64,000 nt of DNA from Candidatus Rariloculaceae bacterium (GTDB lineage Bacteria > Pseudomonadota > Gammaproteobacteria > Steroidobacterales > Rariloculaceae). Position numbers and translations under genes: made by a program. Shown in pieces: positions 45,148 through 64,000 of the stretch (positions are counted from its first letter, which is position 1; every line of letters starts with the position of its first letter). The stretch lies in NCBI GenBank assembly GCA_965205045.1, contig OZ242032.1, positions 17,704-81,703 of the forward strand. Reading direction: 5' to 3'. The notes beneath the pieces were generated by a model. That model had not been told where the DNA came from. It was given only the letters and a program-made list of their open reading frames with translations, and ran no database searches.

Positions 45148-45759
45148 TTGGACCGGCTCGCCGCCCAGTCGCTCCCCCCACGGCGGCTCGCCCTGGCGAC
45201 GACCGGCGTGATGCTGGCGATGTTCCTGTCCGTCTTCAGCCAGACCATCGTCGCCACCGCGATGCCCCGCATCATCGCCGACCTGGGCGGCTTCGACCGC
45301 TACACCTGGCCGGCGACGGCCTATCTGGTGGCGACGGCCGTCGCCGTGCCGATCGTGGGGCGGCTGTCCGACATCTATGGACGCCGGATGTTCCTCATCC
45401 TCGGCCTGCTCATGTTCACGCTGTGCTCGGTGCCGGCGGGTTTCAGCCAGTCCATGACGCAACTGGTCGCTTTCCGCCTCCTGCAGGGCATCGGCGGCGG
45501 CCTCATCGCGGCCAGCAGTTTCGCCGCCGCCGCCGATCTTTTTCCGCCCCAGGGCCGCGGCCGGTTTGAAGCCTACGCCGGCCTCACGTCCGGCATCGCC
45601 GCGGTCGCCGGGCCGCTCCTGGGCGGTTTCATCACCGACCACTTCGCCTGGAACTGGATCTTCCTGCTGAACGTTCCGGTCGGCCTCCTGGTTCTGGCGA
45701 TCGTGCTGGCCTTTCCGAAAATCCGTTCCGAGGTCGAAGACCGCCGCCTGGACTACCCC
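45148..45759 (+). pseudogene. MFS (DHA2/EmrB-like) transporter, 3'-truncated by the Tn3-family insertion
   Basis: ..FSQTIVATAMPRIIADLGG..VPIVGRLSDIYGRR..LLQGIGGG.. Only about 6 TM segments remain. The reading frame runs into the transposon IR and stops at 45795. Confidence 0.7.
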
Positions 45760-45796
45760 GGGTCGGTTGCGGAAAAGGGCGAAAAACCACGCTAAG
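45760..45796 (+). repeat. Left terminal inverted repeat
   Basis: gggtcggttgcggaaaagggcgaaaaaccacgctaag. The inner end ..CACGCTAAG is as in Tn21-type IRs (from memory). Confidence 0.8.
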
Positions 45797-45990
45797 CGCC
45801 CAAGCCTTCTTTCAGCCCCTTCAAAACCCTGCCTTCGGGTCCACGAATAACACTTCTTTGTCGCGAGTCGTGGCGGTATGCCCTCACGAGTCGCTTTTTG
45901 CCGTAAAATAATCACGACAAGCCCGAAGTTATCTTTTTACGATAAGATACGCAGTCCATATCATTTTCGAGACTGTGAGGAGGACACCCC

Positions 45991-46593
45991 ATGGGACTCA
46001 TTGGCTACGCCCGCGTATCCACCGCCGAAGGCCGCCAGGTACTCGATCGCCAGCTTGACGCCCTGAACGATGCCGGGTGCGAGCGCGTGTTCGAGGATCA
46101 TGCTTCCGGCGCCGCCTCCAACCGACCGAACCTGGCCGCCTGTCTCGATTACCTGCGGCAGGGCGACATCCTTGTCGTCCTCGACCTCGACCGCCTGGGC
46201 CGCCGGGCGGGTGAACTCATCGCCCTGATCGACGAACTTGACCACCGCGGCGTCGGGTTCCGCGCCCTCAATTCACCGATGGACACGACCGCACCCGCGG
46301 GCCGTGCCTTCCTGCAGATCCAGGCAGCCTTTGCGGAAATGGAGCGTAACGTCATCCGCCAACGCATCCGTGAGGGTGTCAAGGCGGCGCGGGCCCGCGG
46401 GCGCAAAGGCGGCCGCCCCCGCGTCATGACCCCCGAGAAGCTGCGATATGCTCAGAACCTCATGGCCGACCAGACACGCTCGATACCCGATATCTGTCGC
46501 GAACTCGGCCGCATCCCCGCCAGCACGCTCTACCACTACCTGCACGCCGACGGAACCCTCAAGGAGCCCGGGCGACGGCTCCTCGACGCCTGA
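45991..46593 (+). CDS. tnpR: Serine resolvase
   Basis: MGLIGYARVSTAEGRQVLDRQ..LVVLDLDRLGRR..C-terminal HTH. GAGGAGG RBS. Confidence 0.9.
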   Translation: MGLIGYARVSTAEGRQVLDRQLDALNDAGCERVFEDHASGAASNRPNLAACLDYLRQGDILVVLDLDRLGRRAGELIALIDELDHRGVGFRALNSPMDTTAPAGRAFLQIQAAFAEMERNVIRQRIREGVKAARARGRKGGRPRVMTPEKLRYAQNLMADQTRSIPDICRELGRIPASTLYHYLHADGTLKEPGRRLLDA

Positions 46594-46635
46594 TCCCGCT
46601 TCACGCACCCAACCTTTTGCGGAACGGAACCGACC

Positions 46636-49524
46636 ATGCCCCGTAGAGCCATTCTCACGGACCGGCAGCGGTCCGCCTTGCTCGATCTGCCGACCGACGA
46701 GCCTTCGCTAAGGAGGCACTACACCCTGGCTGACGATGATCTGGAACACATCACCCGGCGCCGGCGCGCCGAAAACCGCCTTGGTTTCGCCCTTCAGCTT
46801 TGTGTCCTGCGCTACCCCGGTCGCGTGCTGCATCCCGGCGAACTGATCCCATCTGAGGTCGTGGCGTTCATTGCCGTCCAGCTGGGCATCGTGGTGGAGT
46901 CCCTGTTGCCCTATGCAGCGCGGAGCCAGACGCGACAGGAACACATGACGGCGCTGCGCTCGATCTACGGATACCGCACGTTCGCCGGACGCGCAGCCAG
47001 GGACCTGAAGACCTGGCTGGACGAGCAGGCCGAGGAGGCGCGCTCCAACGAGGAACTGGCAAGACGCCTCGTCGAGGAATGCCGCCGCAGGCAAGTCATC
47101 CTGCCCGCGGTCTCAACGCTCGAACGGCTGTGCGCCGACGCCGCAGTGGCAGCCGACCGCCGGGTTGAGGAGAGAATTGCCGGCCGTCTCGACACCGCCA
47201 CGCGAATGGCTCTCGACAGCCTACTTTCGGAAACGCTGGAAGGCCGCGTGACACGCTTCGTCTGGCTGCGGCAGTTCGAGCCGGGCAACAATGCCGCCAT
47301 CGCCGGACGCTTGCTGGAGCGCCTGGAGTTCCTGCAGCATCTCGGTCTCTGCGAGCAGATCATCGAAGGCGTGCCTGCCCACCGCGTTGCCCGTCTGAGA
47401 AGACAAGGCGAACGGCACTTCGCCGACGGCCTGCGTGAGATGCTCGACAACCGGCGCCTAGCCATCCTGGCAATATGCGCCGTGGAATGGCAGGCGGCTC
47501 TGGCGGACGTTCTCGTCGAGACCCATGACCGCATCGTCGGCAGGACCTGGCGGGAGGCGGAAAGACTCTGCGATGCCCGCATCGACGACGCCAGGGCAAC
47601 GGTCCGCCGCACCCTCAGGTCCTTCGCCGACCTCGGGCAGGCGCTGCTCGAAGCCCGGCATCAGCCCGCCATGCTCGAACAGGCCGTGTCAGGCAAGCTG
47701 GGCTGGGACAGGCTGAGCGACCTGGTGACCGTGGCCGAACGCCTGACCGATACGATGTCGAACGATCCGCTCGCCCACGTGGCGCAGGGGCACGGCCGCC
47801 TCAGGCGCTACGCCCTGCGCATGCTGCGGGCCCTCGATATCCAGGCCGCCCCGGTTGCAAAGCCTCTGCTGGACGCTGCCAGTCTGATCCGCGACGGCCG
47901 CAGCCACAGCAGCCCGAGAGCCTTTCTGCGTCCGGCCTCCAAGTGGCACCGGTATCTCGATGCGCAGCCCAAGGGCGACAAGCGGCTCTGGGAGGTGGCC
48001 GTCCTGTCCCATCTGCGCGACGGCTTCCGCTCCGGCGACCTCTGGCTGCCGCGCTCCCGACGTCACGGCGACCCGACTCAGGCACTGGTCCCGCTGCCGG
48101 CCACAACGAGCAACGCCGCACTGGCCGTGCCGCTCGACGTCGGCGAATGGCTCGCCGACCGGCAGGCATGGATGACACACGGACTGGAGAGGCTCGCCAA
48201 GGCAGCTCGGACCGGGGCCATCCCGGGTGGCGTCATCCGTGACGGCGGCCTGAACATCGACCGGCTCACCGCCGAGACCCCGGAAGGCGCAGACGAGCTC
48301 ATTCTCGATCTCTACAAGCGCCTGCCGGAGACGCGCATCACTGACATCCTGGTGGAGGTCGACACCGAGGTCGGCTTCACGGACGCCTTCGTCCATATGC
48401 GCACCGGAGCACCCTGCAAGGACAGGATCGGCCTGCTCAACGTGCTACTGGCCGAAGGCATCAACCTTAGCCTCGGCAAGATGGCCGATTCCACCAACAC
48501 CCACGACTACTGGGAACTCATGCGGCTATCGCGCTGGCACGTGGAAGGCGAAGCTTTTGCCCGTGCGTTGGCGATGGTGATCGAGGCACAGGCCAAGCTG
48601 CCTATGGCGGCATTCTGGGGGCCGGGGACTACCGCATCGAGCGACGGCCAGTTTTTTCCGACCACAAGGCAGGGAGAGGCCATGAACCTGGTCAATGCCA
48701 GGTACGGAAACGAGCCCGGACTCAAGGCCTACACTCACGTGTCGGACCGTTTCGGGCCCTTCGCCACCCAGATCATCCCGGCGACGGCGGGCGAGGCGCC
48801 TTACATCTTGGACGGCCTGCTGATGAACGAGACCGGCCGTCGTGTCCGTGAACAGTACGCCGACACCGGCGGCTTCACCGATCACGTCTTCGCCGTCACC
48901 TCTATCCTGGGCTACCGCTTCGTGCCGCGCATCCGCGACCTGCCCTCCAAGCGTATCTATGTCTTCGAGCCGGCCGCCTGCCCGAAAGAACTGCGCGGCC
49001 TCATCGGCGGCAAACTCCGCCAGTCGCTGATCACGTCGAACTGGCCCGACATCCTTCGGCTGGGCGCGACCCTGGCCGCGGGAACGGTTGCTCCCAGCCT
49101 GATCCTGCGTAAGCTGGCCGCCTACCCGCGCCGTAATGACCTCGCCGCGGCGCTACGCGAAGTCGGCCGCATTGAGCGCACTCTCTTCATGATCGACTGG
49201 GCACTGGATCCGGCCATGCAGCGGCGAGCCCAGATCGGCCTCAACAAGGGTGAGTCCCACCACGCCCTGAAGAACGCTTTGCGCATCGGCCGCCAGGGAG
49301 AAATCCGGGATCGCAGTACAGAGGGCCAGCATTACCGCATGGCAGGCCTCAATCTGCTCGCCGCCATCGTCATCTACTGGAACACCGTCCGGCTGGGTGA
49401 AGCAGTTGCCAAGCGAAGGCGCGCCGGCCTGCCCGTCGCCCCCGAGCTTCTGCCGCACACCTCACCCCTCGGATGGGGCCACCTCCTGATTAACGGCGAA
49501 TACAAGTGGCCAAGGAGACGTTGA
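46636..49524 (+). CDS. tnpA: Tn3-family DDE transposase
   Basis: 962 aa, MPRRAILTDRQRSALLDLPTDE..YTLADDDLEHI..SSDGQFFPT..DTGGFTDHVFAV.. Confidence 0.9.
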   Translation: MPRRAILTDRQRSALLDLPTDEPSLRRHYTLADDDLEHITRRRRAENRLGFALQLCVLRYPGRVLHPGELIPSEVVAFIAVQLGIVVESLLPYAARSQTRQEHMTALRSIYGYRTFAGRAARDLKTWLDEQAEEARSNEELARRLVEECRRRQVILPAVSTLERLCADAAVAADRRVEERIAGRLDTATRMALDSLLSETLEGRVTRFVWLRQFEPGNNAAIAGRLLERLEFLQHLGLCEQIIEGVPAHRVARLRRQGERHFADGLREMLDNRRLAILAICAVEWQAALADVLVETHDRIVGRTWREAERLCDARIDDARATVRRTLRSFADLGQALLEARHQPAMLEQAVSGKLGWDRLSDLVTVAERLTDTMSNDPLAHVAQGHGRLRRYALRMLRALDIQAAPVAKPLLDAASLIRDGRSHSSPRAFLRPASKWHRYLDAQPKGDKRLWEVAVLSHLRDGFRSGDLWLPRSRRHGDPTQALVPLPATTSNAALAVPLDVGEWLADRQAWMTHGLERLAKAARTGAIPGGVIRDGGLNIDRLTAETPEGADELILDLYKRLPETRITDILVEVDTEVGFTDAFVHMRTGAPCKDRIGLLNVLLAEGINLSLGKMADSTNTHDYWELMRLSRWHVEGEAFARALAMVIEAQAKLPMAAFWGPGTTASSDGQFFPTTRQGEAMNLVNARYGNEPGLKAYTHVSDRFGPFATQIIPATAGEAPYILDGLLMNETGRRVREQYADTGGFTDHVFAVTSILGYRFVPRIRDLPSKRIYVFEPAACPKELRGLIGGKLRQSLITSNWPDILRLGATLAAGTVAPSLILRKLAAYPRRNDLAAALREVGRIERTLFMIDWALDPAMQRRAQIGLNKGESHHALKNALRIGRQGEIRDRSTEGQHYRMAGLNLLAAIVIYWNTVRLGEAVAKRRRAGLPVAPELLPHTSPLGWGHLLINGEYKWPRRR

Positions 49525-49530
49525 TTCGGC

Positions 49531-49567
49531 CTTAGAGTGTTTTTTCGCCCTTTTCCGCAACCGACCC
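49531..49567 (-). repeat. Right terminal inverted repeat
   Basis: The reverse complement is gggtcggttgcggaaaagggcgaaaaaacactctaag. Confidence 0.8.
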
Positions 49568-49831
49568 GAACTCCCCTTCTATCAATTGTTTTCCTTGAAT
49601 AATCAAGGTATGCGCGTGTCCGGCTCTGCGGGCACAAAAAAGCCCCCCGGGAAATGCACCGGAGGGATGGCTTCCAGGTTCCGACAGCCCTGTGTTTTCC
49701 TTTGTCTCCAGGCCCTAGCCCCGAAGGCTTTCTGCTCCAATATCCGTTACGGTCATTTTCGGCGAACCGCTGTTTAGTTCTACCACGTCGCCGACCTTGA
49801 ATTGAGTCTCCATTGTTCGTTCCTTCAGAAA

Positions 49832-50097: not shown

Positions 50098-51594
50098 TTA
50101 CGCCACCCGTATCCCCTCAGCTCTCAGCCTCGCAATCAATTCCTCTTGCGTCCCCGTCCCCTTGAGCGAGTTGCACGCCCCACACAGCAGTTGCAAGTTG
50201 TCCGGATGATCCGTGCCGCCCTTCGCCTGCGGCACCACGTGGTCAATAGTGAGGTTACGGAACGGGAAGTGTGTACGGCATCCCGTGCAATTACCTTCCT
50301 GCTTGCCGTACAGCGTGTGTTTGTGCGTGCGGTAGTTCGGCAGGCTTGCAACGTCAGTGCGCTGTGGTATGTCCACGCGGCGAACAGCCTTGAACAGCAG
50401 GGCACCTTCGCGGCGCATCCGGGTTTCGACGAGTTGCGCGGCAAGCGGCGACAGGTCGATCCCGACCCATTGCCGTTCCAGCCGGTCGGCAGCAACACAC
50501 GCCGTGGCGCAGCCGCAGAATGGGTCGAGGATCATGTCGCCAGGGTTAGATGAGGCGCGGATGATGCGGTCGAGCAGGGCGAGGGGCTTCTGGGTAGGAT
50601 AACCGATGCGTTCTTTGGCTTGCGGATTGACCGGCGGAATGTCGGCCCATACGTCCGGCGGTACCTGCCCAGGATTCGCGGAAAGATAGCGCTTGAGTTC
50701 TGGCGTCCCTTTCGATGTAAAGACAATCAATCCGGCTTCGTGTAGCATGTCGAGCCGTTTCAACACGCTGAGTTCCGACCGGTATCCAGGGATGCAATTC
50801 TCTTCTATCCACTCCGCATAGGCTCCCGTGCGAGGCACGCTCCAGTGTCTGCCAATATTGGTGGGGTCCCAACCCTTCCAAGCGGCACCGGCTTCGCCCG
50901 TGCTGACGCCCGCGCCGGTCAGATCGCCCCTGCGATACTTTCCTGTGTCGTCCCTGTAACGATACTTGGATGCTACGTTCGGTTCAGCTAGAGGGACACG
51001 CGCAGCGGCGCGGTCGATTTCCGAGCCATAGAACAGCAGCCGATCCGCTGTCCGTCCAAACCGCCCGGCATCGTTATGGTTGGATACCCGTTTCCAGATT
51101 ATCTCGTTTTGAAACATGCCCTTCCCGAATACCGCATCCATGAGCATCTTCAAATAATGGCTGGCTGCATCATCACAGTGCAGATACAGCGACCCCGTAT
51201 CCTTGAGCAGCCGCCGCATTTCGAGTAGCCGTACGCCCATCATCATGAGGTATGACTTCATGCTCTTGCCGTGCGCCTGGCCCGCCGCATCGATAACGGC
51301 ATACAGCGGCGGCTCGCGCTCGGCAATCTCACCGTGCCACGCGAGGTCCACGTCGTCCAACGTCCACGCATCCTTGAACGCCGCGCCCGCCGCCTCGCTG
51401 CCTATCGGTGCCGAGTAGGTACGATTGGAGTTGAACGGCGGGTCCAAGTAGATCAGGTCAACCGAGGCCGAGTTCATGCCGCGCATGATGTCCAGGTTGT
51501 CGCCGGTCCACATGGTGCGGTTTTGCCAGTTGGGTTGCATGGTTATCGAAGGTCTCCCGCCAACGCCTGCGCGCTGTGGTTTCGGCGTGATCAA
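50098..51594 (-). CDS. DNA methyltransferase (N4/N6, beta-class motif order) fused to a C-terminal HNH nuclease
   Basis: ..[15 protein letters not shown].. (motif IV) precedes ..[15 protein letters not shown].. (motif I). C-terminus ..[44 protein letters not shown] (HNH). Confidence 0.85.
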
Positions 51595-52922: not shown

Positions 52923-53214
52923 GTCAGGTCTCCTGGAGATGACAGAGGACGGATGCCGCAATATGCGGCGATGTACGTACCACTATATAGGGCATGAAAT
53001 GTTCGGTTTTAACTTCCGATAATCACCCATTATGTTAACTTTGGGGTGGCGCCGTTGCTGGCGCAAACGGCATCCGCGGCAAGTTCCCCACCGGCCAATT
53101 ACCATCCCTAATAACGACGTGGAGCACGACCCGGAACGGTGGGGCGGAGGGGATTAATACGGCCCGTTCCCGGCAATGCAGTGGGACGTGGGTGGGAAAA
53201 GTTACGGTGTGGCA

Positions 53215-54015
53215 TCACTCCTTGCGCGGCGGCTGTTCCGGACACTCGAGGCCGGCCTCGACGATGCGCTCCAGGTCAACCACGCGATCCGGCAGCAGGT
53301 CCATCACCTGGCCCCGCCAGCGCCTGACCGTATCGACCAGCGCCACCTCGGCGTTGCGGCGCTGTGGCCCCTTGCCGTTCGCCATCGTGTACGCACAGCC
53401 GGAGACGAACATGCGCCAGCCGTTCTTGTCCAGCTCGCGATCCAGCTTCTTGGCCAGGTCCTTCGTGCGCTTCTCGCGGGTCGGCAGCAGGTCCTCGTCG
53501 ACCCCGTTCTCGACCTGGCGCCAGATGCGAGCTGCAGGCGTTTCATCCTCGGACTTGGCGTTTTCCGCCGCCTCCCCTCCGGTTGCCTTGTAACCGTTTT
53601 CGATTCGCACCTCCGGCGGCCGCTCCTCGATGGGCAAGACGTACTGGATCGACTCCGAGGCGGCCAGGCTCCAGATGCGCCGCACCTGGTTCGGCTGCCA
53701 CGTCCCGCCGCGCGGCGGCCGCACGTCGCCGAGGTTCAGCCGGTCGGCGATGCGGCGGTAGCCCAGGCCCTCGGCCCGGCACTGCGTGATCTGCTCGATG
53801 ACCAGGGCGGCGTGCTCACGCCGGCGGGACCGCCGGACTTCGAGCGACTTCCGTTGAATCGCTTTCCGCGTAGACAGCTTCACCGAATACCCCTTCGTGT
53901 ACACGTCTGAAATCCTATCCGCACGTTTGAGAACCTTCTCAAGCGTACACGATGGGATGCCATCAAACACCCTCAAACGTATCCGTCCCCGGTCCGCATC
54001 CAAAATCTGCGTCAC
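53215..54015 (-). CDS. Protein with a serine-recombinase 'Recombinase'-type DNA-binding domain but no catalytic domain
   Basis: ..CRAEGLGYRRIADRLNLGDVRPPRGGTWQPNQVRRIW.. Its C-terminal 60 aa are paralogous to the 59948-60129 fragment. Confidence 0.6.
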   Translation of the reverse strand: MTQILDADRGRIRLRVFDGIPSCTLEKVLKRADRISDVYTKGYSVKLSTRKAIQRKSLEVRRSRRREHAALVIEQITQCRAEGLGYRRIADRLNLGDVRPPRGGTWQPNQVRRIWSLAASESIQYVLPIEERPPEVRIENGYKATGGEAAENAKSEDETPAARIWRQVENGVDEDLLPTREKRTKDLAKKLDRELDKNGWRMFVSGCAYTMANGKGPQRRNAEVALVDTVRRWRGQVMDLLPDRVVDLERIVEAGLECPEQPPRKE

Positions 54016-54112
54016 TACACGCCGAGTGATACTTCGTTCGGTCCAGTATCCACGCGGTCAATCGCCAGTTTTTCCCCTCACTGAAATGTCACGTGGCGTG
54101 TAGTGACGCAGA

Positions 54113-54595
54113 TCAGGCCGGCAGGTTGTCTTGCTCCGCCGCTGATTTTCTGGCCTTCGCTTCCCGTACGTCGCGGCTCCACTGCGCCAGGCGTCCCTTC
54201 GGCTCCGTATCCCTGGGGAGCCTGCGGGGCGCCGGCAGCCCGTGGTACTCGCGCAGCGACCGCGGACGCGGCAGGCACGAACACCAGGGCGTGTCACGGA
54301 GCGACTGGGTGCACCTGGCGCACCAGGTATCGAACGCCGGCTGGCCGGGCACGAAGCGCCCGGTCGCGATGCGGATGCCGTGGCGCTGGGCGATGCGGTA
54401 AAGCTGCCGCCGCGTCCAGGCACCGCCGCGCGGCGCCCTGGTCATGGTGTAGTCCTGCACACAGCGCAGGGCGCGAGACAGCCCGCCGCCCAGCATGGCG
54501 ACGCGCTTCAGCATGGGGAGGACCGACCGGTCGTGCATGGCCTGGCGCTCGCGACGGCGCGCCAGGGCCAGGGCGCGGTGCTCGTCCGTCAGCAT
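54113..54595 (-). CDS. Hypothetical 160-aa protein with a related RGG-W HTH-like motif and Cys-rich tail
   Basis: MLTDEHRALALARRRE..TRAPRGGAWTRRQLYRIAQRHG.. ATG 54595 lies 2 nt after the integrase stop. Confidence 0.5.
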   Translation of the reverse strand: MLTDEHRALALARRRERQAMHDRSVLPMLKRVAMLGGGLSRALRCVQDYTMTRAPRGGAWTRRQLYRIAQRHGIRIATGRFVPGQPAFDTWCARCTQSLRDTPWCSCLPRPRSLREYHGLPAPRRLPRDTEPKGRLAQWSRDVREAKARKSAAEQDNLPA

Positions 54596-54597
54596 GA

Positions 54598-55473
54598 TCA
54601 GCGGCCAAGATAGAGGGCCGTGATTTGTTCGCGGCCATGACCGAGCTCCTCGCTGATGATCTTGCGGGCCTCGCGGTCGAGAGCCCTCTCGTCGCGCCGC
54701 AGCTGCCTCGTCTTTCCCCCCGGCGCAGCCGGCGCCAGGCGCCCGGTCAGCTCGAAGTAGCGGTTCTGCGCGTAGGCATGCCTGAGGCCGTGCATCTTGT
54801 GCAGGCCGGCCGCTGCCGTCTGGCGCTCGTAGCGGCGCACCTGGTCCTTGTACTGCCCCGTCGGGATGAGCGATCCCCTGGGGGTTTTGGCGGCCAGGGC
54901 CTTGGCGCGATCCAGGACCTCGCGCTGCGCCTCGGTGCGGATCGGGATCTCGCGCGGCCTCCCTCCCTTCGTCCACGACGCCTTGAGCACCAGCCGACTT
55001 CCCCGGTCGGCCCATTCGACAACGATCTTGATCGCCTCTTCGCGCCGCAGGCCGAACACGCGCTGCAGCTCCAGGCTCATGCGCACGTAGGGGCACTTCA
55101 CCCGGGCCAGGTTGCCGTGCGACAGGGAAACCGCCTTGCTCACGTTGGTGACGTACTGGCGCCTGCCGATGCCGTAGGCGCTGTTTTCCCGCGCCACCAT
55201 CCAGGACTTGTTCACCTTGCCGCACACCCACCTGAGCGCGCTCATGCGGTTCTTGAGAGTCCCGATGCTGATGCCGGCGTTCTTCCAGCGCTCGACCAGG
55301 GCGTCGATATGCTTCGGCTTCAGGTTCCTGGCCTTGAGCTGCCTGGAGCCGGCTTCGGCCAGATGCCGGGCGATCATCTTGACGTGATAGCGGCGACCGC
55401 GCTGCGTGGCGAAGCTGCCCTCCGCCTTGCCCTTGTGGCGCCAGGTCATCTTCACGATGTCATCGTTTGGCAT
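54598..55473 (-). CDS. Tyrosine recombinase (paralog of 34802-35689)
   Basis: ..LELQRVFGLRREEAIKI..SWTKGGRPREIPI..MHGLRHAYAQNRY..ELGHGREQITALYLGR. Confidence 0.8.
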   Translation of the reverse strand: MPNDDIVKMTWRHKGKAEGSFATQRGRRYHVKMIARHLAEAGSRQLKARNLKPKHIDALVERWKNAGISIGTLKNRMSALRWVCGKVNKSWMVARENSAYGIGRRQYVTNVSKAVSLSHGNLARVKCPYVRMSLELQRVFGLRREEAIKIVVEWADRGSRLVLKASWTKGGRPREIPIRTEAQREVLDRAKALAAKTPRGSLIPTGQYKDQVRRYERQTAAAGLHKMHGLRHAYAQNRYFELTGRLAPAAPGGKTRQLRRDERALDREARKIISEELGHGREQITALYLGR

Positions 55474-55500
55474 CCTTGATCCCCTTCCCTCGGAGCGCCT

Positions 55501-55800
55501 TTACTCAGCGACCTCGCCCCCCTGCGCATCGAGACGCCCTTCGAGGTGGGAAATCCGTCTCTCGAAAGCGCGAAGCACCTCGAACATCTCATCGAAGCGG
55601 CGGTTGAGATCGTTGTGCTGACGGCTGTTTTCAACCTGTGCGGCATCAAAGCGGGCGTTTGTATCCGCCTGCAAACGATCAATACGACCATTCATCTGGT
55701 CGATACGGCCGTTCATCTGGTTGAACATCACCATCATAGCCACCAACAGACCCATCACAGCCGACCAGAACTCAATTCGTGTCATCCCTTCCCCTTTCAA
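55501..55800 (-). CDS. Small TM + coiled-coil protein (family of three in this window)
   Basis: ..FWSAVMGLLVAMMVMF..MNGRIDQMNGRIDRLQADTNARFD..RISHLEGRLD.. Confidence 0.5.
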   Translation of the reverse strand: MKGEGMTRIEFWSAVMGLLVAMMVMFNQMNGRIDQMNGRIDRLQADTNARFDAAQVENSRQHNDLNRRFDEMFEVLRAFERRISHLEGRLDAQGGEVAE

Positions 55801-56084
55801 TCGCGCCCGAAGCCACGTGGCGGCTCCAGGGTCTCCAGGTCGCCGAAGTCGTACTCACAGATCGCCCCCAGGCGTTCAGCAACCGGCGACTCCTGGAGGC
55901 TGTCGGGCAGGCTGTCAAGCCAATCCTGATACTCGGCCTGCAAGTCCACGAGGGTCTGGACGGCATCGCGCCAGCGTTGCGGACGACTGCGGCGGTCCTG
56001 CGGCCGGCGGTAGTGAATACGCGGCTGCTGTTCCTTGCGGCGGTCGCGGTAGCGTTGTTGTCTCTCGGCGTTGCTGAGTCCCAT
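55797..56084 (-). CDS. Hypothetical basic protein ending ..EPPRGFGRD
   Basis: MGLSNAERQQRYRDRRKEQQ..LQAEYQDWLDSLPDSLQESPVAERL..LEPPRGFGRD. I recall this end motif from phage/plasmid modules, but this is unverified. Confidence 0.45.
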   Translation of the reverse strand: MGLSNAERQQRYRDRRKEQQPRIHYRRPQDRRSRPQRWRDAVQTLVDLQAEYQDWLDSLPDSLQESPVAERLGAICEYDFGDLETLEPPRGFGRD

Positions 56085-56116
56085 ACCCTCATCGTGTCCC
56101 GTTACGTAACAGGCTT

Positions 56117-56371
56117 TCAAGGAGTCTCTTTGTCTCGCTCAAGCAAGATCGTCTCAAGCCGCGTCAGCCGTTCACGGAGTTCGGGCAGTATTTCAAGCTG
56201 ATTCTCTATCCGGTCGAGGCGCACGACAAGCGGTGCCACCGCAGACGATACGGCCCACTGGATACCCGCTCCCAAAGCACCTACGACAACGGCAACGGCC
56301 GCCACAATTGCCAACCAATCCCTGGTCCTCGCCAGATTCAGACCGCGTTGCGTCTCAGCTTGTGTCGCCAT
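56117..56371 (-). CDS. Small TM + coiled-coil protein
   Basis: ..WLAIVAAVAVVVGALGAGI..VVRLDRIENQLEILPELRERLTRLETILL.. Confidence 0.5.
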   Translation of the reverse strand: MATQAETQRGLNLARTRDWLAIVAAVAVVVGALGAGIQWAVSSAVAPLVVRLDRIENQLEILPELRERLTRLETILLERDKETP

Positions 56372-56374
56372 GTT

Positions 56375-58291
56375 TCAGCCTCCCATCATGTCACGTGCGG
56401 TTTCGGCCACTGTCTGGATGACCTTGCCATGCCGGGCTTTGTTCATCCTTGCGAGTGTCGCCATGCTATCCACGTTGGCCGGCGTTTCGTTGTTCAGGTC
56501 CAGTGCCTCACCACCTTGGTAGTGCATCGAATCCGGCGGTTCGATGCGCACGGCTCGCGCGTGGTGACAAGGCGAATTTTCCGCGGATTTTTGCTCTTTT
56601 TCCCTTCCGGGGGGTATTTCAACCGCAACACCGCAACAACCCGCATGGTTACTAGCCGAAACGGAATTATCAACCGCAACATGACTTTTTGGTTGTTGCG
56701 GTTGTGATTCGCGTTTCGCCGCGTCGTTATTGACTTGTTGCGGTGTTGCGGTTGTAGGGGGGGTATTAAGGGAATTTTGTGGAGCGTAGCGGGTACACAC
56801 CTGCCGTAAGGCGTCGGTTTCGTAACCGCGTGGCGTGGTGTTGCCAACTCTGACGACTTTCGCCTTTGGCGCTCCTAATTCCTTGAGCATGCGTCCCAGG
56901 CTGTTCTGTGTTAGCCCAGCCTTACCGTACTCACTCCAGGGTGCGCCTTCCAGGTTGAGCAAGGCGTCTACCAGAGCTCGGCTTGAGATGTTTGGCCCGA
57001 AGTCGCCGTCGTCGACCACGGTCAACACGTCTTGCGCCAGTGCCTCAACGTAGCCGGTCTCATCCAGGTCCTCAGCCGCCGCCTGGATGGATTGGCAAGC
57101 CTGCAAGATACGACCCGGCCAATCGCTGCCGGCCACGTGCGCGATGGCAAACAGTATCTCCCATGCGTCGCACGCCCGGTCATGCAGCCAGGCCGGAAGC
57201 GTCACCTCATCACGGGCGAGCATGACGGCTTCGGTGTTGTCAGTCGCCCAGCGCACAACCCGCTGTTTCAGACGTCCCAGATACCCGCGGTTGCGGGTAC
57301 GCCACTTTGGAAGGGGATCGCCGGAGCGTCGTTGCATGCGAAGGGTGATGCAGCGGTCCGCCGTGGTGCCAGACAAACGCCCGATGCCCGACAGCACCTT
57401 CGGACACCACGACGAAAAGGCACGCGCTTCCAGGTTGCGCCCTTCGCCCACCATGCGCACGACGCGCGCCTCGTTGCGCTTCTGTGAGCCGTTCAGCAGT
57501 GCCAGCAGTTCGGGGTTGTCTTTCAGGTAGGTATCAATCTCGTCGAATAGCAAGGTGGGTTCGTGCTGTTCGACGGTGCGAAATACCGCGGCAGGTGTAA
57601 TGCCGGACACCGGCAACGGGCGCCAGGAGAGCTCCGATATCACCTCCAGCAGGGTACTTTTGCCGCATCGTTTCGTTGGCGAGGTGACGCGCAGGAAGGT
57701 GCTTATTTCCAGGTCCGAGTGGCTGTGCAGGTAGGTAGAGACGCACCACGTGGCCACCACGTCGGCGGCGCCGGGTGGCAGAGATACGTGACGGGAAATG
57801 AGCGCCGCCATGTCATCGAGGAGACGGCCGCTTTCAACGGGAAACAACAGGGGTTCGACTTCCGGCCAGGTCAGTTCATGTCCCGGCTTGCGCTTTTCCT
57901 TCCCGGCTTTCTTGACCTTACCGATCGTCGCCAGCGCGTAGCCGTCGCCGTCCGCTTCCGGCAGGTAGGTATAGATCCGACGTATCGTTTCGTAACGATC
58001 AATAAGCAGGCGCTCAAAGGCGACGCGCTGCTCTCGCGGTGTGTATTCCGACTTCAGGTCCAGGATAGCTACGCGACATGCGGGTTGTGTCCAGGCGAGC
58101 GCAAGCACGGTCACGGCGTCGCCGTCTGGCTCTCTGTCGCCGTTCTGGTAGGCAAGCATCGCTGTCTTTGCGATGCCGACCTTCCAGTCGTCGGGGTAAG
58201 ACTGCCAACGCGTCGGGGAGACGGCGGCACTTTGGAGAAGATCGCCGTAGTCGAGAGAAGGGGTATTGCCTGCCAGGGGGTCTTGTGCCAT
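56375..58291 (-). CDS. DUF3631-type P-loop protein (phage/plasmid replication-associated ATPase)
   Basis: ..VTSPTKRCGKSTLLEV (Walker A)..LLFDEID..DAWEILFAIAHVAGSDWP.. The last ~180 codons are low-complexity and overlap a DNA repeat cluster. Confidence 0.7.
   Translation of the reverse strand: MAQDPLAGNTPSLDYGDLLQSAAVSPTRWQSYPDDWKVGIAKTAMLAYQNGDREPDGDAVTVLALAWTQPACRVAILDLKSEYTPREQRVAFERLLIDRYETIRRIYTYLPEADGDGYALATIGKVKKAGKEKRKPGHELTWPEVEPLLFPVESGRLLDDMAALISRHVSLPPGAADVVATWCVSTYLHSHSDLEISTFLRVTSPTKRCGKSTLLEVISELSWRPLPVSGITPAAVFRTVEQHEPTLLFDEIDTYLKDNPELLALLNGSQKRNEARVVRMVGEGRNLEARAFSSWCPKVLSGIGRLSGTTADRCITLRMQRRSGDPLPKWRTRNRGYLGRLKQRVVRWATDNTEAVMLARDEVTLPAWLHDRACDAWEILFAIAHVAGSDWPGRILQACQSIQAAAEDLDETGYVEALAQDVLTVVDDGDFGPNISSRALVDALLNLEGAPWSEYGKAGLTQNSLGRMLKELGAPKAKVVRVGNTTPRGYETDALRQVCTRYAPQNSLNTPPTTATPQQVNNDAAKRESQPQQPKSHVAVDNSVSASNHAGCCGVAVEIPPGREKEQKSAENSPCHHARAVRIEPPDSMHYQGGEALDLNNETPANVDSMATLARMNKARHGKVIQTVAETARDMMGG
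56620..56756. repeat. Nested inverted-repeat cluster built from CCGCAAC/GTTGCGG (6 cores)
   Basis: Left arm caaccgcaacaccgcaac at 56620-37. Central hairpin caaccgcaac..gttgcggttg at 56671-56704. Right arm gttgcggtgttgcggttg at 56737-54, the exact reverse complement of the left arm. Confidence 0.8.
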
Positions 58292-58520
58292 GATTTGGCT
58301 TCCTTTCTAGCGGATTCCTGGGCAGGTCGCCGCTGAAAGAGTTGTTGTTGCTGGCCTGGTTCCCGAAAGGGGATCAGGCCAGTGGTCTTTGCGCACCTTA
58401 GCACCGCCCCCGCTACGTGTCTAATTCCGAGCTTGTTGCAACCCGAGGCTGGTCGACGAGGCCTGCGGCGCCACCGGCAGCTCCGTCGTCGTCGGCGACG
58501 GGGTCGGCCACGACGCCAGG

Positions 58521-59510
58521 GTGTCCTTCGCCGCCTTTTTCCGCCGCGGCGAGCGCCGACTGGACCTGGAGCGCGATTACTACGACAACTACTTCCACCA
58601 GGACGAACGCGTCCCGCGTCTCATGCACCTGCGCGAAGGCAAGCTGGTCCGCGTCGCCGACCTCTTCACCGCCGGGGAACGCAAGACCTCTGCGACTTGG
58701 AACGAGGCCCTGCCGCGCGCCGGCACCCAGAACGGCCTCAACGTGCGCCTGCGCGGCCTGCACGGCTTGCGCGTTACCTGGGTCATTGCCGACCCCGTGG
58801 CCGGCGACTGGGAAACCGGCCGCATCCGCGTGATCCGGCGCCTGTTGCCGCATCTCCGCAACTTCGTCCACGTTCGCCAGGCCCTGGCCGGTGCCGAAGC
58901 CCTGGGGTCGCCCTTCACCCGTCTGCTCGACAACGCCCGCCTCGGCGTCATCCACCTGGACCGGCGCGGGCGCATCATGGAGGTCAACGACCGCGCCCGC
59001 CACCTCCTCAGACGAGGTAACGGCTTGTGGGAACAGAGAGGCTTCCTGCGCGCCTGGTCGCCGGACGACGACGCCCGCCTCGAGCGGCTGGTGGCGGCGG
59101 TCCTGCCGTCGCTCGGCGGCCAGGCAGCCGGTGGCTCGATGCTGGTCCGGCGCCCCTCCCTTGTGCCGATGCTGACGCTGCACGTCCATCCCGCCACCGT
59201 GCGCCAGATGGACTTCGGCGCCCCGGAGGCGGGGGCGCTGGTGCTGGTCGACGGCCTGGACGGGCTCCAGCTCGATGCGGGCCAGGTGGGGTCGGTGCTC
59301 GGCCTGACGCCGGCCGAGAGCCGCGTGGCGGTCGAACTGGCCGAGGGCAGGACGGTGCCGGACATCGCCGCTGCATCCGGACGGTCAGAGGGTACGGTTC
59401 GCATCCACCTCAAGCGCATCCACCGCAAGCTGGGGGTCTCGCGCCGGGCGGACTTGGTTCGCCTGGTGCTGTCAGTGCCCGAGCGCGCCGGACGCCGGCG
59501 CTATCCCTGA
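58521..59510 (+). CDS. LuxR-family transcriptional regulator (N-terminal sensor-like region + GerE HTH); start uncertain
   Basis: ..LGLTPAESRVAVELAEGRTVPDIAAASGRSEGTVRIHLKRIHRKLGVSRRADLVRLVL.. GTG 58521 is the first canonical start in an ORF open from 58425. Confidence 0.7.
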   Translation: MSFAAFFRRGERRLDLERDYYDNYFHQDERVPRLMHLREGKLVRVADLFTAGERKTSATWNEALPRAGTQNGLNVRLRGLHGLRVTWVIADPVAGDWETGRIRVIRRLLPHLRNFVHVRQALAGAEALGSPFTRLLDNARLGVIHLDRRGRIMEVNDRARHLLRRGNGLWEQRGFLRAWSPDDDARLERLVAAVLPSLGGQAAGGSMLVRRPSLVPMLTLHVHPATVRQMDFGAPEAGALVLVDGLDGLQLDAGQVGSVLGLTPAESRVAVELAEGRTVPDIAAASGRSEGTVRIHLKRIHRKLGVSRRADLVRLVLSVPERAGRRRYP

Positions 59511-59710
59511 GGTTCCTGCGGCAAGTCAAAACGCTTTCCTCGATCATCCGACACGCCCCTGACGCCTGCCCCAATCCACTTGGTCAACGTGCTTTTGTCC
59601 CCCGTTTGGGGACGGTTACACCGTGTCGCTTCTGTGCTATCTGTCTGCAGTGAGTCTGCTCGCCATGACCCGGACCGGCCAGCGACAGAGTCGGTCCTGC
59701 TGCCGGCCGC

Positions 59711-59944
59711 ATGGCTTGGCGGCGGGCCGGCAAAACGGAGATACAGGCGATGAACGGGCGCCTCGACCGCATGGAAGCTGAGATCAGAGCCGGCCGGGAA
59801 GAGACAACGGCGTTACGGGGCGACGTGCAAAACGAGTCCAAGGCCATTCGGGCGGATATTGCAGCCCTCAGCGAGCGCCTGACGCGGGTAGAAATCCTGC
59901 TTGCGCAGCGAGACGGGGCAGGCCCCCAGGAACCGGCCAGATGA
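59711..59944 (+). CDS. Small coiled-coil protein (third family member)
   Basis: ..MNGRLDRMEAEIRAGREETTALRGDV..LSERLTRVEILLAQRD.. Confidence 0.45.
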   Translation: MAWRRAGKTEIQAMNGRLDRMEAEIRAGREETTALRGDVQNESKAIRADIAALSERLTRVEILLAQRDGAGPQEPAR

Positions 59945-59947
59945 TCC

Positions 59948-60129
59948 TCAGTCATCCTTGCGTGGCGGCGGCTCCGGGCTATCGCGTCCAGCCTCGACGA
60001 TCCGCCGAAGGTCAGTCGCCCGCTCCGGCAACAAATCGACGACCTGATCCCGCCACTGTCTGACCGTCTCGACAAGCATGACCTCGGCGTTGCGGCGCTG
60101 CGGTCCCTTGCCGTTCGCAATCGTGTATG
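59948..60129 (-). pseudogene. 3' exon-like remnant of a paralog of 53215-54015, interrupted by the intron
   Basis: (P)YTIANGKGPQRRNAEVMLVETVRQWRDQVVDLLPERATDLRRIVEAG..PPRKDD* versus AYTMANGKGPQRRNAEVALVDTVRRWRGQVMDLLPDRVVDLERIVEAG..PPRKE*. DNA similarity stops at 60127-60130. Confidence 0.6.
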
Positions 60130-60679
60130 GTCGGGTAAGGAGGCTGCATCGCTGCCGCCCCCTCCCTAAGAACCGTACGTGCGGGTTTGCCCGCATACGG
60201 CTCAAGCAAACCAGCCGTAGAATCGTCGCCTCAGATGGCGCGCCCACTTATCGCCGGCGTCCTGGCTCTGTTTGCAGCCTTACAGGCTGCATCTAACATC
60301 CACCAGGATGAGCCATCTTTGCCACGTCCTATGACCGGTCCACCAGTTGCACGTCAGCACCCTTTCGGGTTGGGCATAGGCCCTATCCAGCAGCTTAGAG
60401 CGGTTTCCATATGACCATACGGGATGCCTGCAATAGGCAAATCAGCCCGGATTATCCGATGCCGTAGTAGGCCAGACACACGAACGAAAACCGCTATATG
60501 GTTTCGCTTTGCCTTTCGGCATCTGGCCTTCGCTTCTTGCAACCTCCTGTTCCCGCTGAGGACATAGCCCTTCCTCGCGGTTGGGTTTCTGACCCGAAGG
60601 TCAGACCTCATCGGGGTTACCCTGTTCCGCATCCTTGAGATACGATCGGGTTAGGTGCCTTCTCTACGCCGGAGCCTAT
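60130..60679 (-). ncRNA. Group II intron ribozyme remnant, ORF-less; domains V and VI clear, 5' end probably truncated
   Basis: Minus strand 60203-60170 is GAGCCGTATGCGGGCAAACCCGCACGTACGGTTC, a textbook domain V with the AGC triad, AC bulge and tetraloop. A domain VI-like stem AGGGAGG..CCTCCTT + A follows, and the 3' end is ..GAC at 60130. No GUGYG at the 5' side. No reverse-transcriptase ORF. Confidence 0.65.
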
Positions 60680-60742
60680 GGGCCTCATCGCAAGGTTTGT
60701 ATTCAGATTTACTCTAAGGCCACATAAGCCGGCCACATGACC

Positions 60743-61363
60743 TCAACGCACCGTCCTGGTGATCCTGTAGGCCGTTGCCCTGCCGATGTCCAGTTGTTTC
60801 GCGGCCTGTCCCGCCGTGAGTCCAGCCTCGACGAGGGCTTGTGCAGCCGAAACAGTCTCTTGATCCAGTGCCGGACGACCGGGCCTTCTGCCGCGTTTTC
60901 TGGCCGCCGCAATTCCGTCCCGCGTACGTTCGGAGATGAGCCGCCGCTCGAAGTGGGCAATCGCCCCGAAGACATGGAACACCAACTCGCCGGCGGCCGA
61001 CGTGGTGTCGATGCGTTCCTCGAGACTGACCAGGTTGATGTCGTGCGCCTTGAGATTCTCGACCGTTTCGAGCAGTTCCTTGAGGGAGCGCCCGAGGCGG
61101 TCGAGCCGCGTGACACACAGGCTGTCGCCGGCGCGGGCATGGTCAATGAGTTCGTTCAGCCCCGGACGCTCGAACTGTTTCCCGGAGATCACGTCGACAA
61201 ACACACGGATGGCGCCGGCCTGGCGCAGCCGGTCTTCCTGGGCAGCGACGTCCTGGTCCGCGGTCGACACGCGGGCATAGCCGAGGATGTCTCCTTTACG
61301 GGCCGTCTTTTTAACGCTCGGTTCGGGGACACTCTTGAGAGTCTTCATAATTCTCCCGTTCAA
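60743..61363 (-). CDS. tnpR: Serine resolvase
   Basis: ..ILGYARVSTADQDVAAQ..CVTRLDRLGRS..C-terminal HTH ..LDIGRATAYRI.. Confidence 0.85.
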   Translation of the reverse strand: MNGRIMKTLKSVPEPSVKKTARKGDILGYARVSTADQDVAAQEDRLRQAGAIRVFVDVISGKQFERPGLNELIDHARAGDSLCVTRLDRLGRSLKELLETVENLKAHDINLVSLEERIDTTSAAGELVFHVFGAIAHFERRLISERTRDGIAAARKRGRRPGRPALDQETVSAAQALVEAGLTAGQAAKQLDIGRATAYRITRTVR

Positions 61364-61441
61364 GGCGTCAAATCTGTCTCTTTATTCGTCTCTATACTCT
61401 AGGCGGTCTCGAAATGCAAAACATCCTTTTGGAGACATGCC

Positions 61442-64000
61442 ATGGCACCCAGACGCCTTGTCCCGCCACCCGTCCGCGACACCTTGCTGGGCATTCCCTC
61501 TGACACGACCTCACTGGAGCGCAATTACGTCCTGGCCGATGAAGACCTGGAACTCATCGGCACGCGCCGACGCGCCGCCAACCGGCTCGGCCTGGCTGTC
61601 CATATCACTCTTCTGCGCCATCCTGGTCAAGACTGGCTTGGTGATACGCACGTGCCCAGCCCTGTCCTGCTCTGGCTTGCCGAGCAGGTCGCCGTACCGG
61701 TATCGGCTCTGACCGGCTACGGCATCAGGGACGCGACGCGTTCCAGCCACAGGCAATTGGCAATGCGCCACCTTGGACTCCAGCCGTTCGTGCCGCGCGA
61801 CGACATGGCCGCTGCCATCCGACTCGCCGCCCGGGCGGCATTCGATACCGATGACGGACGCCTCATCCTGGAGCGGTTGGTCAGCGACCTGAAAGCCTTG
61901 CGCTACGTGCTGCCGAGCGCCGTCAGGTTGGAACGCATCGGCCTCGCCGGACGCGCCCGTGCCAGGCGTCTTTCGGCACAAGCCCTCAACGACGCCCTGG
62001 ATGAAAGCCACAAGAGCGCCCTGAGCGATCTGCTCAGGCATGACCCCGCTCTCGGCCAGTCGCGGCTGACCTGGCTGCGCGGACTGCCGCATTCCACCAG
62101 CTCGGCGAGCCTCCGCGGACTCCTGGACAGGCTGAAGTTCGTGCGAGACCTCGGGCTGCCGGCAGAGCTGGGCGACAATATTCACCCGGCTCGGCTGGCC
62201 AGGTTCGCCAGGGAAGGCGCCGTTGCCCCGATCAACCTGCTCAGTGATTTCGGCGAGCGCCGCCGTGTCGCCACTCTGGCTGCCCAAGTGTCGGAACTGG
62301 ACACGGTGTTGACCGATGCCGCGATCGCCATGTTCGAGCGTCTGACAGGCCTTTTGTTCACTCGCTCCAAGAACCGGCAGGAACGCTCCTGGTCGGCCAG
62401 CAAGCCGCAGGTCGGCCGGTTGATCCGGCTCTTCGGCGGCACCCTTGACGCCATGGTGCGCGCCCGCCAGCACAAGCAGGACCCGTTCGCCGTCCTCGAT
62501 GCAGAGATCGGCTGGGACCGCTTGCTCAGGTCTCGTGAAGAGATTGCTTCCTTTGGGGACCTGGCGACGGAAGACGCCTTGCCCTTGGCGGCAGGACGCT
62601 ACACCCAGCTGCGGCGCTTTGCGCCGGCGTTCCTGGAAGCTTTTGACTTCAAGGTGACGGAGGCCGGGCAGGACCTGCAGGCAGCGCTGGAACTCCTGAA
62701 GGAACACAACCGCGCCGGCAAGCGCAACCTGCCCGACGTCGTGCCGATGCCCTTTGCCAGCCAGAACTGGAAGTCCATGGTCCTGGAAAACGGGCGGCCT
62801 AAGCGGCGCGTCTACGAGACGGCAGTCGTCGCCACCCTGCGCGACCGGCTTCGCGCCGGCGACGTGTGGGTGGAAGGCAGCCGCGATTACCGCCGCTTCG
62901 ACGCCTACCTGCCACCCTTGGACGAGGCGAGGCAGGTGCTTGCCGACAGCGGACTCGCGACCGATGGACCAACGTGGCTGGCAAGCCGCCGCGAGACGCT
63001 GCGCCAGCGCCTGCACGAGGTGAGGAAAAAGCTCGTCCACGGCCATCTCGAAGGCGTTCGCCTCGAACGCGGCCGCCTCAAGATCACACCGTACGATGCG
63101 GTCACGCCCCACGCCGCCAGACGCCTCGATTACGCCATCGACACCCTGATGCCGCGTATCCGCATCACCGACCTGCTGTGGGACGTGAGTGTGCAGACGG
63201 GCTTCCTTGACGCCTTCACCGATCTGCGCTCCGGACGCCCGCATAGAAGTCCCGTTCGCTCCTCGCCACCATCCTCGCCGGGGCGACCAACCTCGGCCTG
63301 GAGCGCATGGCGCACGCCTCCGGAAGCATCAGCCACGCACAGCTCTCCTGGGCCAGCACTTGGTATCTGCGCCCCGAAACCTATGCCGATGCCCTGGCGC
63401 GTATCATCGATGCCCATCACGCCCTGCCGTTTGCCAAGGTCTGGGGCGAAGCCGACAGGACCTCGTCGGACGGCCAGTTCTTTGCCTCGGGGCGAAAGTC
63501 AGGCGAGATCAACGCCAAGTACGGTCCGGACCCGGGCCTCAAGATCTATTCGTTCCTGTCCGGGCAGTACGGCTCGTTCCATGCCAACGTCATCGGCGCC
63601 ACCGCCGGCGAGGCCCCTTTCGTCCTGGACGGGCTCGTGGGAAACGCCGCCCAGTTCAATCCGCTGGTGCACTACGTCGATACCGGCGGGGTCTCGGATC
63701 ACATCTTCGCCCTGTTCCACCTCCTGGGCCTCGTGTTCGCCCCGCGCTTACGAGACTTCCCGGATCGTCGCCTGGCCTGCTTCGGCAAGCCCGGCCAGTT
63801 CAAGGGCCTCGCTCCCATCATGGGAAGACCGATCCATGAGGCGGTCATCCTCGATCACTGGGGCGACGTGATGAGACTGACGGCCGGGATCAAGACCAAG
63901 GCCGTCCAGCCTTCGGCCATGCTCAGGAAGCTGGGCGCCTACCGGCAGCAGAACCGCCTGTACCTCGCCCTCGGCGAGATCGGCCGCATCGAGCGCACCC
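61442..64000 (+). pseudogene. tnpA: Tn3-family transposase with a -1 frameshift near 63240-63250; 3'-partial
   Basis: The N-terminal 600 aa are normal (MAPRRLVPPPVRDTLLGIPSD..). After ..FTDLRSGRPHR the track frame turns into Pro/Ser/Arg-rich noise. The next frame reads SRSLLATILAGATNLGLERMA..TSSDGQFFASG..DTGGVSDHIFALF.. to the window end. Confidence 0.8.

Follow-up and report, generated by a model that had tools for sequence, protein, structure and literature searches.

Most copies of group II introns in bacteria are truncated and lie amid other mobile DNA (PMC4424553). Bacterial introns that contain no ORF are rare; related introns are usually present, and their proteins perhaps act in trans (PMC4424553). 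In Thermosynechococcus elongatus, 17 ORF-less TeI3 introns share one common deletion of ~1.5 kb with ORF remnants on both sides, and are mobilized by related intron-encoded proteins (IEPs) (PMC2882425). The locus described here lies in a 64-kb stretch of DNA (the whole stretch analyzed, hereafter the window) and is very probably a dead copy of a non-autonomous, ORF-less group II intron, with the history proposed below (see section Proposed History and Significance).

Domains and Structure of the Intron Remnant

The remnant and its best-delimited domains are as follows.

60130..60680, minus strand: group II intron remnant, 551 nt, defined by RF00029, by alignments to sibling copies and to the ORF-containing relative L050, and by folding
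60170..60203, minus strand: domain V, a 34-nt hairpin with an AGC triad and a two-base bulge, from Rfam and compensatory changes among siblings
60130..60166, minus strand: domain VI with a bulged branch-point A at 60136, from the Rfam alignment and the consensus fold of four siblings

The Rfam model for group II intron domains V and VI (RF00029) matches 60205..60130 of the minus strand over its full length with 57.6 bits (E = 1e-8; gathering score, 40), and is the sole Rfam family to reach threshold across the window. This search, which had been proposed as a check in a first-pass annotation of the sequence, confirms the domain V recognized there by its AGC triad, bulge, and 34-nt hairpin (minus strand 60203..60170, GAGCCGTATGCGGGCAAACCCGCACGTACGGTTC); among the siblings, compensatory changes occur at four domain V pairs. 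The domain VI with an unpaired A and a terminal GAC at 60130, claimed in the same annotation, is borne out by the Rfam alignment and the sibling consensus fold, in which the branch-point A at 60136 is unpaired and lies 7 nt from the intron 3′ end (...CCCGAC).

Upstream of domain V, about 480 nt had been described as structured and RNA-like. The remnant does fold far better than shuffled sequence (z-score −6.9), but 101 of these nucleotides belong to a separate inserted repeat (see section MITE-Like Insertion in Domain II). Forty-eight of 50 consensus pairs predicted from the relatives alone are kept in the remnant, which is as well as they are kept in intact relatives, and this preservation of the helices indicates that the damage arose by insertions rather than by long mutational decay.

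In blastn against PLSDB, 60675..60497 and 60397..60336 are 68–74% identical to sequence located just upstream of ltrA in Streptomyces and Sinorhizobium plasmids. The 5′ end of these plasmid introns (GTGCGAC...) lies ~300–350 nt before the start of the similarity to the window, and their reverse transcriptase (RT) gene begins 60–100 nt past the motif CCCGAAAGGGTGCTGACGTG; in the window this motif is at 60370..60351, and domain V follows 146 nt on. Layout and spacing together indicate that the remnant comprises the 3′ (distal) part of domain I, domain II (with the inserted repeat), domain III, a short ORF-less domain IV, and domains V and VI. The Rfam D1–D4 models, a further check that had been suggested, gave no match on 59500-61500 at E up to 10. 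In the complete relatives the only one of these models to match is RF02012, which covers intron nt ~40–175, and the absence of this part from the window copy explains the negative result.

Megablast of 56000-64000 against PLSDB gave no match, and two viral-contig scans were empty. Protein look-ups by exact match were likewise negative for the TnpR ORF and for a 638-aa ORF. A scan of GTDB genomes with a domain V pattern returned 26 loci that are alike only in domains V and VI. Two loci from a metagenome pattern scan (L034, L038) were set aside as relatives, as they have no similarity to the window intron.

Domain IV and the Lost ORF

60212..60345, minus strand: ORF-less domain IV; the alignment to L050 places the remnant start codon (ATG) at 60316..60314, the premature TAG at 60295..60293, and the deletion junction near 60254/60253

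A related full-length intron, for which a search of the genome had been recommended at the outset, exists on a metagenome contig (L050). It is 85–87% identical to the window intron and about 2.36 kb long, and its intact 569-aa IEP (L050 792-2501) has RVT_N, RVT_1, GIIM, and HNH domains. The intron in L050 begins with GTTGCGAC at 233-240, not with GTGCGAC, a difference that would be inactivating unless it is an error of the assembly (2x coverage).

By alignment to L050, ~1.6 kb of the RT/maturase/HNH ORF is gone from the window, and similarity picks up again ~30 nt ahead of domain V. Of the lost ORF, ~21 codons survive at the start, with the premature TAG in place of the TGG of L050, and the long domain IV stem is conserved, with two compensatory pairs. 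The first-pass annotation had described a domain IV of only ~100 nt without an RT ORF: the RT is indeed missing, but the stretch from the domain III motif to domain V measures 146 nt and retains the ORF codons just mentioned. The idea that the compact stem is a naturally short domain IV was dropped, as L050 and the siblings identify it as a deletion scar. Pfam returned nothing for the intronic ORF, blastx of the remnant against IEPs gave noise only, and tblastn with two intron-encoded proteins found no RT anywhere in the 64-kb window (best E = 2).

Sibling Copies and Spread of the Mini-Intron

Spurious ORFs within the intron, used as protein probes, led to close relatives in metagenome assemblies. 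The ORF-less siblings L052, L053, and L054/L055, all on metagenome contigs, are 86–98% identical to the window intron (L052, 97.8%/92.4%; L054, 88.3%/91.4%; L053, 85.7%/91.4%); in L052, 97.8% identity extends without interruption from 60397 to 60130, through domains III–VI. Two of the siblings, L053 (748 nt) and L054 (749 nt), are complete introns that start with GTGCGACCTGAAAGTCGC, a 5′ end of the GUGYG form (GTGCGACC). In both, the EBS1 loop GCCCAG pairs with the end of the 5′ exon (...CTGGGC), and EBS1 is found at the same place in five further relatives. The consensus fold of domains IV–VI in the four copies has 82 pairs, of which 7 show compensatory changes, including two in the domain IV stem.

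The remnant ATG, the TAG, and the deletion junction (GACGCCGG|C(G/C)ATAAG) are common to the window copy, L052, L053, and L054, and the 3′ flanks of all four differ. The sites of the siblings are here called different by these 3′ flanks only, the last 30 nt of the 5′ exon being common to L053 and L054. The same junction and stop codon next to different 3′ flanks imply that the deletion occurred once and that the mini-intron, already ORF-less, then spread. Judged by sequence comparison, the window intron is a member of a deletion-derived, ORF-less family of ~749 nt that spread to at least four places, as counted by 3′ flank.

An autonomous intron could instead have been inserted at this locus and have lost its ORF in place by decay, which would make the ORF-less state a local matter and not a family trait. 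The stop codon in the ORF remnant, the position of the copy in a junkyard of mobile DNA, and the window's want of an RT would all fit. However, three siblings from different samples and with different 3′ flanks have the same junction and the same TAG, so the deletion predates the insertion in the window, and in-place loss is very unlikely. The first-pass annotation had offered a mini-intron mobilized in trans or a decayed copy as alternatives, and each catches part of the picture: the family spread as a deletion-derived mini-intron, presumably in trans, and the window copy is dead.

Somewhat short of an even chance, in our estimate, is the further proposal that the ~749-nt intron is an actively spreading non-autonomous retroelement of uncultured, partly marine bacteria, driven in trans by an L050-type protein. 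If so, it would be a second natural system, besides Thermosynechococcus, with a proliferating deletion-derived mini group II intron.

Soil metagenomes contain further ORF-less introns of this class (L035/L036/L037/L045 and L039/L043), which are 731–752 nt long where complete. Domain IV is shared within these groups (82–91% and 97% identical), and the flanks of L035 and L045 are clearly different, so that ORF loss followed by spread seems recurrent in this intron class; these families hint that mini-intron spread may happen repeatedly. Group II introns also occur in head-to-tail tandem, where one intron ends and the GTGCG of the next follows directly, both as an ORF-containing pair in a Streptomyces plasmid (L001 2510-2600) and as an ORF-less pair in a metagenome contig (L042).

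MITE-Like Insertion in Domain II

60396..60498, minus strand: MITE-like element inserted into domain II (99 nt and the duplicated TA), with copies elsewhere and empty sites in the siblings and L050

Domain II of the window copy is 101 nt longer than that of every relative. A long domain II as a lineage trait was considered and abandoned, as L050 and the siblings identify the extra sequence as a MITE-like element. It is short and non-coding, has terminal inverted repeats of 14 bp (TATAGCGGTTTTCG / CGAAAACCGCT(A/C)TA) and a target duplication, and occurs in five distinct contexts. Copies that are 93–95% identical and have unrelated flanks are present in L046/L047, L048, and L049, and one of about 84% identity in L051; the copy in L046/L047 splits a short-chain dehydrogenase (SDR) gene, and that in L051 lies within a Zip transporter gene. 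No further copies were found in PLSDB or elsewhere in the window, and no parent transposase was identified for the element. The empty site in the siblings and L050 reads CCA-TA-A(G/C)CTGCTGG (in the siblings also read as CCA-TA-AGCTGCTGG), and this single TA indicates that TA was duplicated upon insertion. The 8 nt after the element are common to the window and the L046 copies (AGCTGCTG), which hints at a target preference or at chance.

Truncation of the Intron by a Tn3-Family Transposon

60681..60719, plus strand: Tn3-family terminal inverted repeat, tnpR side, aligned to the Yoonia and Sulfitobacter repeats
60743..61363, minus strand: tnpR resolvase, a 206-aa ORF with Pfam Resolvase (152.9 bits) and HTH_7, laid out as in L030 and L031
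61442..64000, plus strand: tnpA transposase, running off the window end, with DUF4158 and a frame change near 63235-63250

Measured against the complete siblings, the window copy is missing 300 nt at its 5′ end, and with them the 5′ splice site, the greater part of domain I, and the EBS1 hairpin. This hairpin ends 17 nt before the break in the siblings, and neither EBS1 nor EBS2 is present in the window copy. Homology to the complete introns begins abruptly at 60680, directly adjoining the Tn3 repeat (siblings, ...CACACCACAGGCTCCGG; window, (GGCC)CATAGGCTCCGG). Since the edge of the intron homology is also the edge of the repeat, the intron is broken exactly at the transposon end.

The repeat itself (60681-60719, GGCCTCATCGCAAGGTTTGTATTCAGATTTACTCTAAGG), previously put forward as a Tn3-type candidate, aligns with both terminal repeats of related elements on Yoonia (L030) and Sulfitobacter (L031) plasmids. 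The repeats in L030 and L031 read GGCCCCATCGGAAGGTTT...CTAAGG, and their flanks diverge exactly at GGCC. The 60681 repeat occurs once in the window; its partner is expected ~450 nt past the window end, as the reverse complement of GGCCTCATCGC.... Both a Tn3-family DDE transposase and a serine resolvase are present in the element, the transposase being frameshifted and cut by the window end. The closest transposases, TnpA of Rhodobacterales plasmids (Yoonia, Sulfitobacter), are 58% identical in amino acids. DDE_Tnp_Tn3 (272 bits) is found only in the shifted frame from 63247, with a TAG just upstream in that frame, and the frame change at 63235-63250 is due to a sequencing error, or else tnpA is a pseudogene. 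The three-layer nesting (gene, intron, transposon) deduced in the first-pass annotation is upheld by the homology edge at 60680 beside the repeat, and the MITE-like element adds a further layer.

Neither the 5′ piece of the intron nor the upstream part of the interrupted gene was found elsewhere in the 64-kb window, the latter by tblastn, in agreement with the earlier statement that the intron 5′ end and the 5′ exon are absent. The sequence GTGCG at 60751..60747 does invite the reading that the intron is complete and short and starts at 60751 within the end of tnpR, the supposed repeat being a part of domain I, and GTGCGTTGAGGTC at 60751 is loosely like the GTGCGACCTGAAAGTC of the family. However, transposons without any intron have terminal repeats to which, at both ends, 60681-60719 is homologous; ahead of the homology point the siblings have 300 nt rather than 71, with an RF02012-type structure and EBS1 among them; and tnpR spliced to the 3′ exon would not be in frame. 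The reading can practically be dismissed: GTGCG is a part of tnpR and not an intron end.

The Tn3 family by default makes a simple insertion with a 5-bp duplication, for which CTATG would be expected at the intron site. Alternatively, intramolecular transposition or recombination involving the transposon, for example, may have deleted the 5′ 300 nt together with the 5′ exon, in which case the junction at 60680 would be a deletion end-point. Consistent with such a loss, neither 5′ intron nor 5′ exon sequence occurs in the 64 kb, a second element of the Tn3 family is located 11 kb away, and tnpA is frameshifted, which would make the element old. The family default argues the other way, and nothing contradicts a deletion directly; we consider it rather unlikely.

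The second Tn3-family transposon (45759-49568) is apparently intact. Its 38-bp repeats (...AACCACGCTAAG) are 95% complementary to each other and unrelated to the 60681 repeat, and it encodes a resolvase (45991-46593) and a 962-aa transposase (46636-49524).

The Interrupted Gene and Its In-Window Paralog

59948..60129, minus strand: 3′ exon remnant, comprising the final 58-59 codons and the stop codon of a gene whose C-terminal module is conserved (YTIANGKGPQRRNAEV...PPPRKDD*)
53215..54015, minus strand: in-window paralog, uninterrupted, a 266-aa ORF with the same C-terminal module and a weak Pfam Recombinase match (27 bits)

The 182 nt downstream of the intron had been called colinear with the 3′ end of 53215-54015. 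This is correct: 60127..59955 and 53391..53219 are 78.6% identical over 173 nt, and the similarity has its edge at 60127. The junction reads GAC|CATACACG in the window and ...GGCTGTG|CGTACACG in the paralog, where the equivalent of the intron site falls inside the codon GCG.

The description of the host as a paralog of a recombinase-domain gene is uncertain. At the DNA level, the exon and a ProQ/FinO-type gene in L032 are 87.0% identical up to the stop codon, where the homology ceases. At the protein level, the 58-aa tail matches the ProQ/FinO-type proteins P0018, P0027, and P0017 at 52 positions, the recombinase-like P0006 at 50, and the type of the in-window paralog at 43. By these counts the interrupted gene would be of the ProQ/FinO or the recombinase-like type, its tail being closest to ProQ/FinO-type proteins. 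In homologues of the paralog (P0001-P0038, all from metagenomes), the partner of the C-terminal module of ~120 aa is either a recombinase-like HTH region or a ProQ/FinO domain. The module is not covered by any Pfam model; its consensus is ...RIWRQVE.G.D..LLPT.EKR.KDLAKK.DR.LD.NGW...PPRKE.

When the remnant was searched by brute force for EBS/IBS complementarity to the 14 nt upstream of the site in the paralog, only noise emerged, as EBS1 lies in the missing part. If the window copy once had the EBS1 of its siblings (GCCCAG), this would mismatch the ...GCTGTG of the paralog, and the insertion may therefore have been ectopic or retargeted.

The paralog lies in a stretch (53007-58443) that also encodes an integrase (PF12835) and a DUF3631 protein and that is 92–96% identical to a 7.5-kb metagenome contig (L033). 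L033 is circularly permuted relative to the window, and its two ends seem, as deduced from window coordinates, to overlap by ~55 nt, which suggests that the L033-like stretch may be a small circular or integrative element. The window further contains a 687-aa ORF with GPP34 and cytochrome P450 domains (43070-45133) and a DNA methylase of 498 aa whose C-terminal domain is an HNH nuclease (50098-51594).

Proposed History and Significance

The features above can be accommodated in the following history. A full-length intron like L050 would have lost about 1.6 kb of its ORF, keeping the start-codon region and the base of domain IV. The resulting ~749-nt mini-intron would then have spread to new sites, presumably by reverse splicing and reverse transcription with the protein of a related intron supplied in trans. 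One copy would have entered, in sense orientation, the last third of a gene that has the conserved C-terminal module (ProQ/FinO or recombinase-like type). That copy would have been hit twice more, in either order: by the 101-nt MITE-like element at a TA in domain II, and by the tnpR–tnpA transposon of the Tn3 family, which inserted, or caused a deletion, 300 nt from the intron 5′ end. The 5′ part may survive beyond the transposon.

In its present state the window copy cannot splice or move, because the 5′ splice site, the exon-binding sites, and the RT are all missing, and the host gene is destroyed. Split group II introns of organelles splice in trans (PMC4424553), and the halves of an intron split by a transposon might likewise assemble and splice the host gene, a prospect to which the RNA pairs kept as well as in intact relatives lend some color. 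Against it stand the 101-nt insertion in domain II, the absence of an IEP nearby, and a 5′ half that is not seen in the window and for which no promoter arrangement is known; we regard trans-splicing as highly improbable and the copy as dead.

The locus is a known kind of mobile-DNA wreckage and not a new mechanism; the ORF-less intron family is itself the new addition, and the modest interest of the locus lies in this family and, to a lesser degree, in the MITE. A family with one deletion, a plausible protein donor, and several environments would be a further natural case of introns that depend on proteins supplied in trans, and scenarios for the origin of spliceosomal introns often include a step of this sort. 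By itself, the window copy is of value only as a clean case of nested mobile DNA and as a demonstration of the probe approach, in which protein databases can be searched for sibling copies with the antisense or spurious ORFs of a non-coding element.

Comparison with Known Systems

Correia elements of Neisseria, which are MITEs that duplicate TA, resemble the domain II insertion in description: they have about 100 nt, repeats starting with TATAG, and a habit of inserting into genes and other elements. The Tn3 elements of Yoonia vestfoldensis pSMR4r-1 and Sulfitobacter sp. SK025 are like the truncating transposon in their divergent tnpR and tnpA and in their ~40-bp repeat GGCC(C/T)CATCG(G/C)AAGGTT...CTAAGG, but TnpA is only 58% identical, and tnpA of the window is frameshifted.

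Fragmented introns in bacterial mobile DNA (Dai and Zimmerly, 2002; PMC4424553) are similar in that truncated copies lie among transposons and integrases. The window copy differs in that the truncating element, the exact break-point, and the intact form of the family can all be named for it.

The TeI3 introns of T. elongatus (Mohr et al., 2010; PMC2882425) are alike in a single deletion of ~1.5–1.6 kb in domain IV with identical break-points in all copies, in ORF remnants on both sides with a disrupted frame, in copies at different sites, and in an ORF-containing relative as a possible protein donor. They differ in that the window family starts with GUGCGACC, has a domain I with a 5′ part of RF02012 type, and has a relative whose IEP contains RVT_N and HNH domains. 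Whereas TeI3 copies share one genome, the window family is known from scattered metagenome contigs, we infer rather than observe its mobilization in trans, and the copy in the window is broken.
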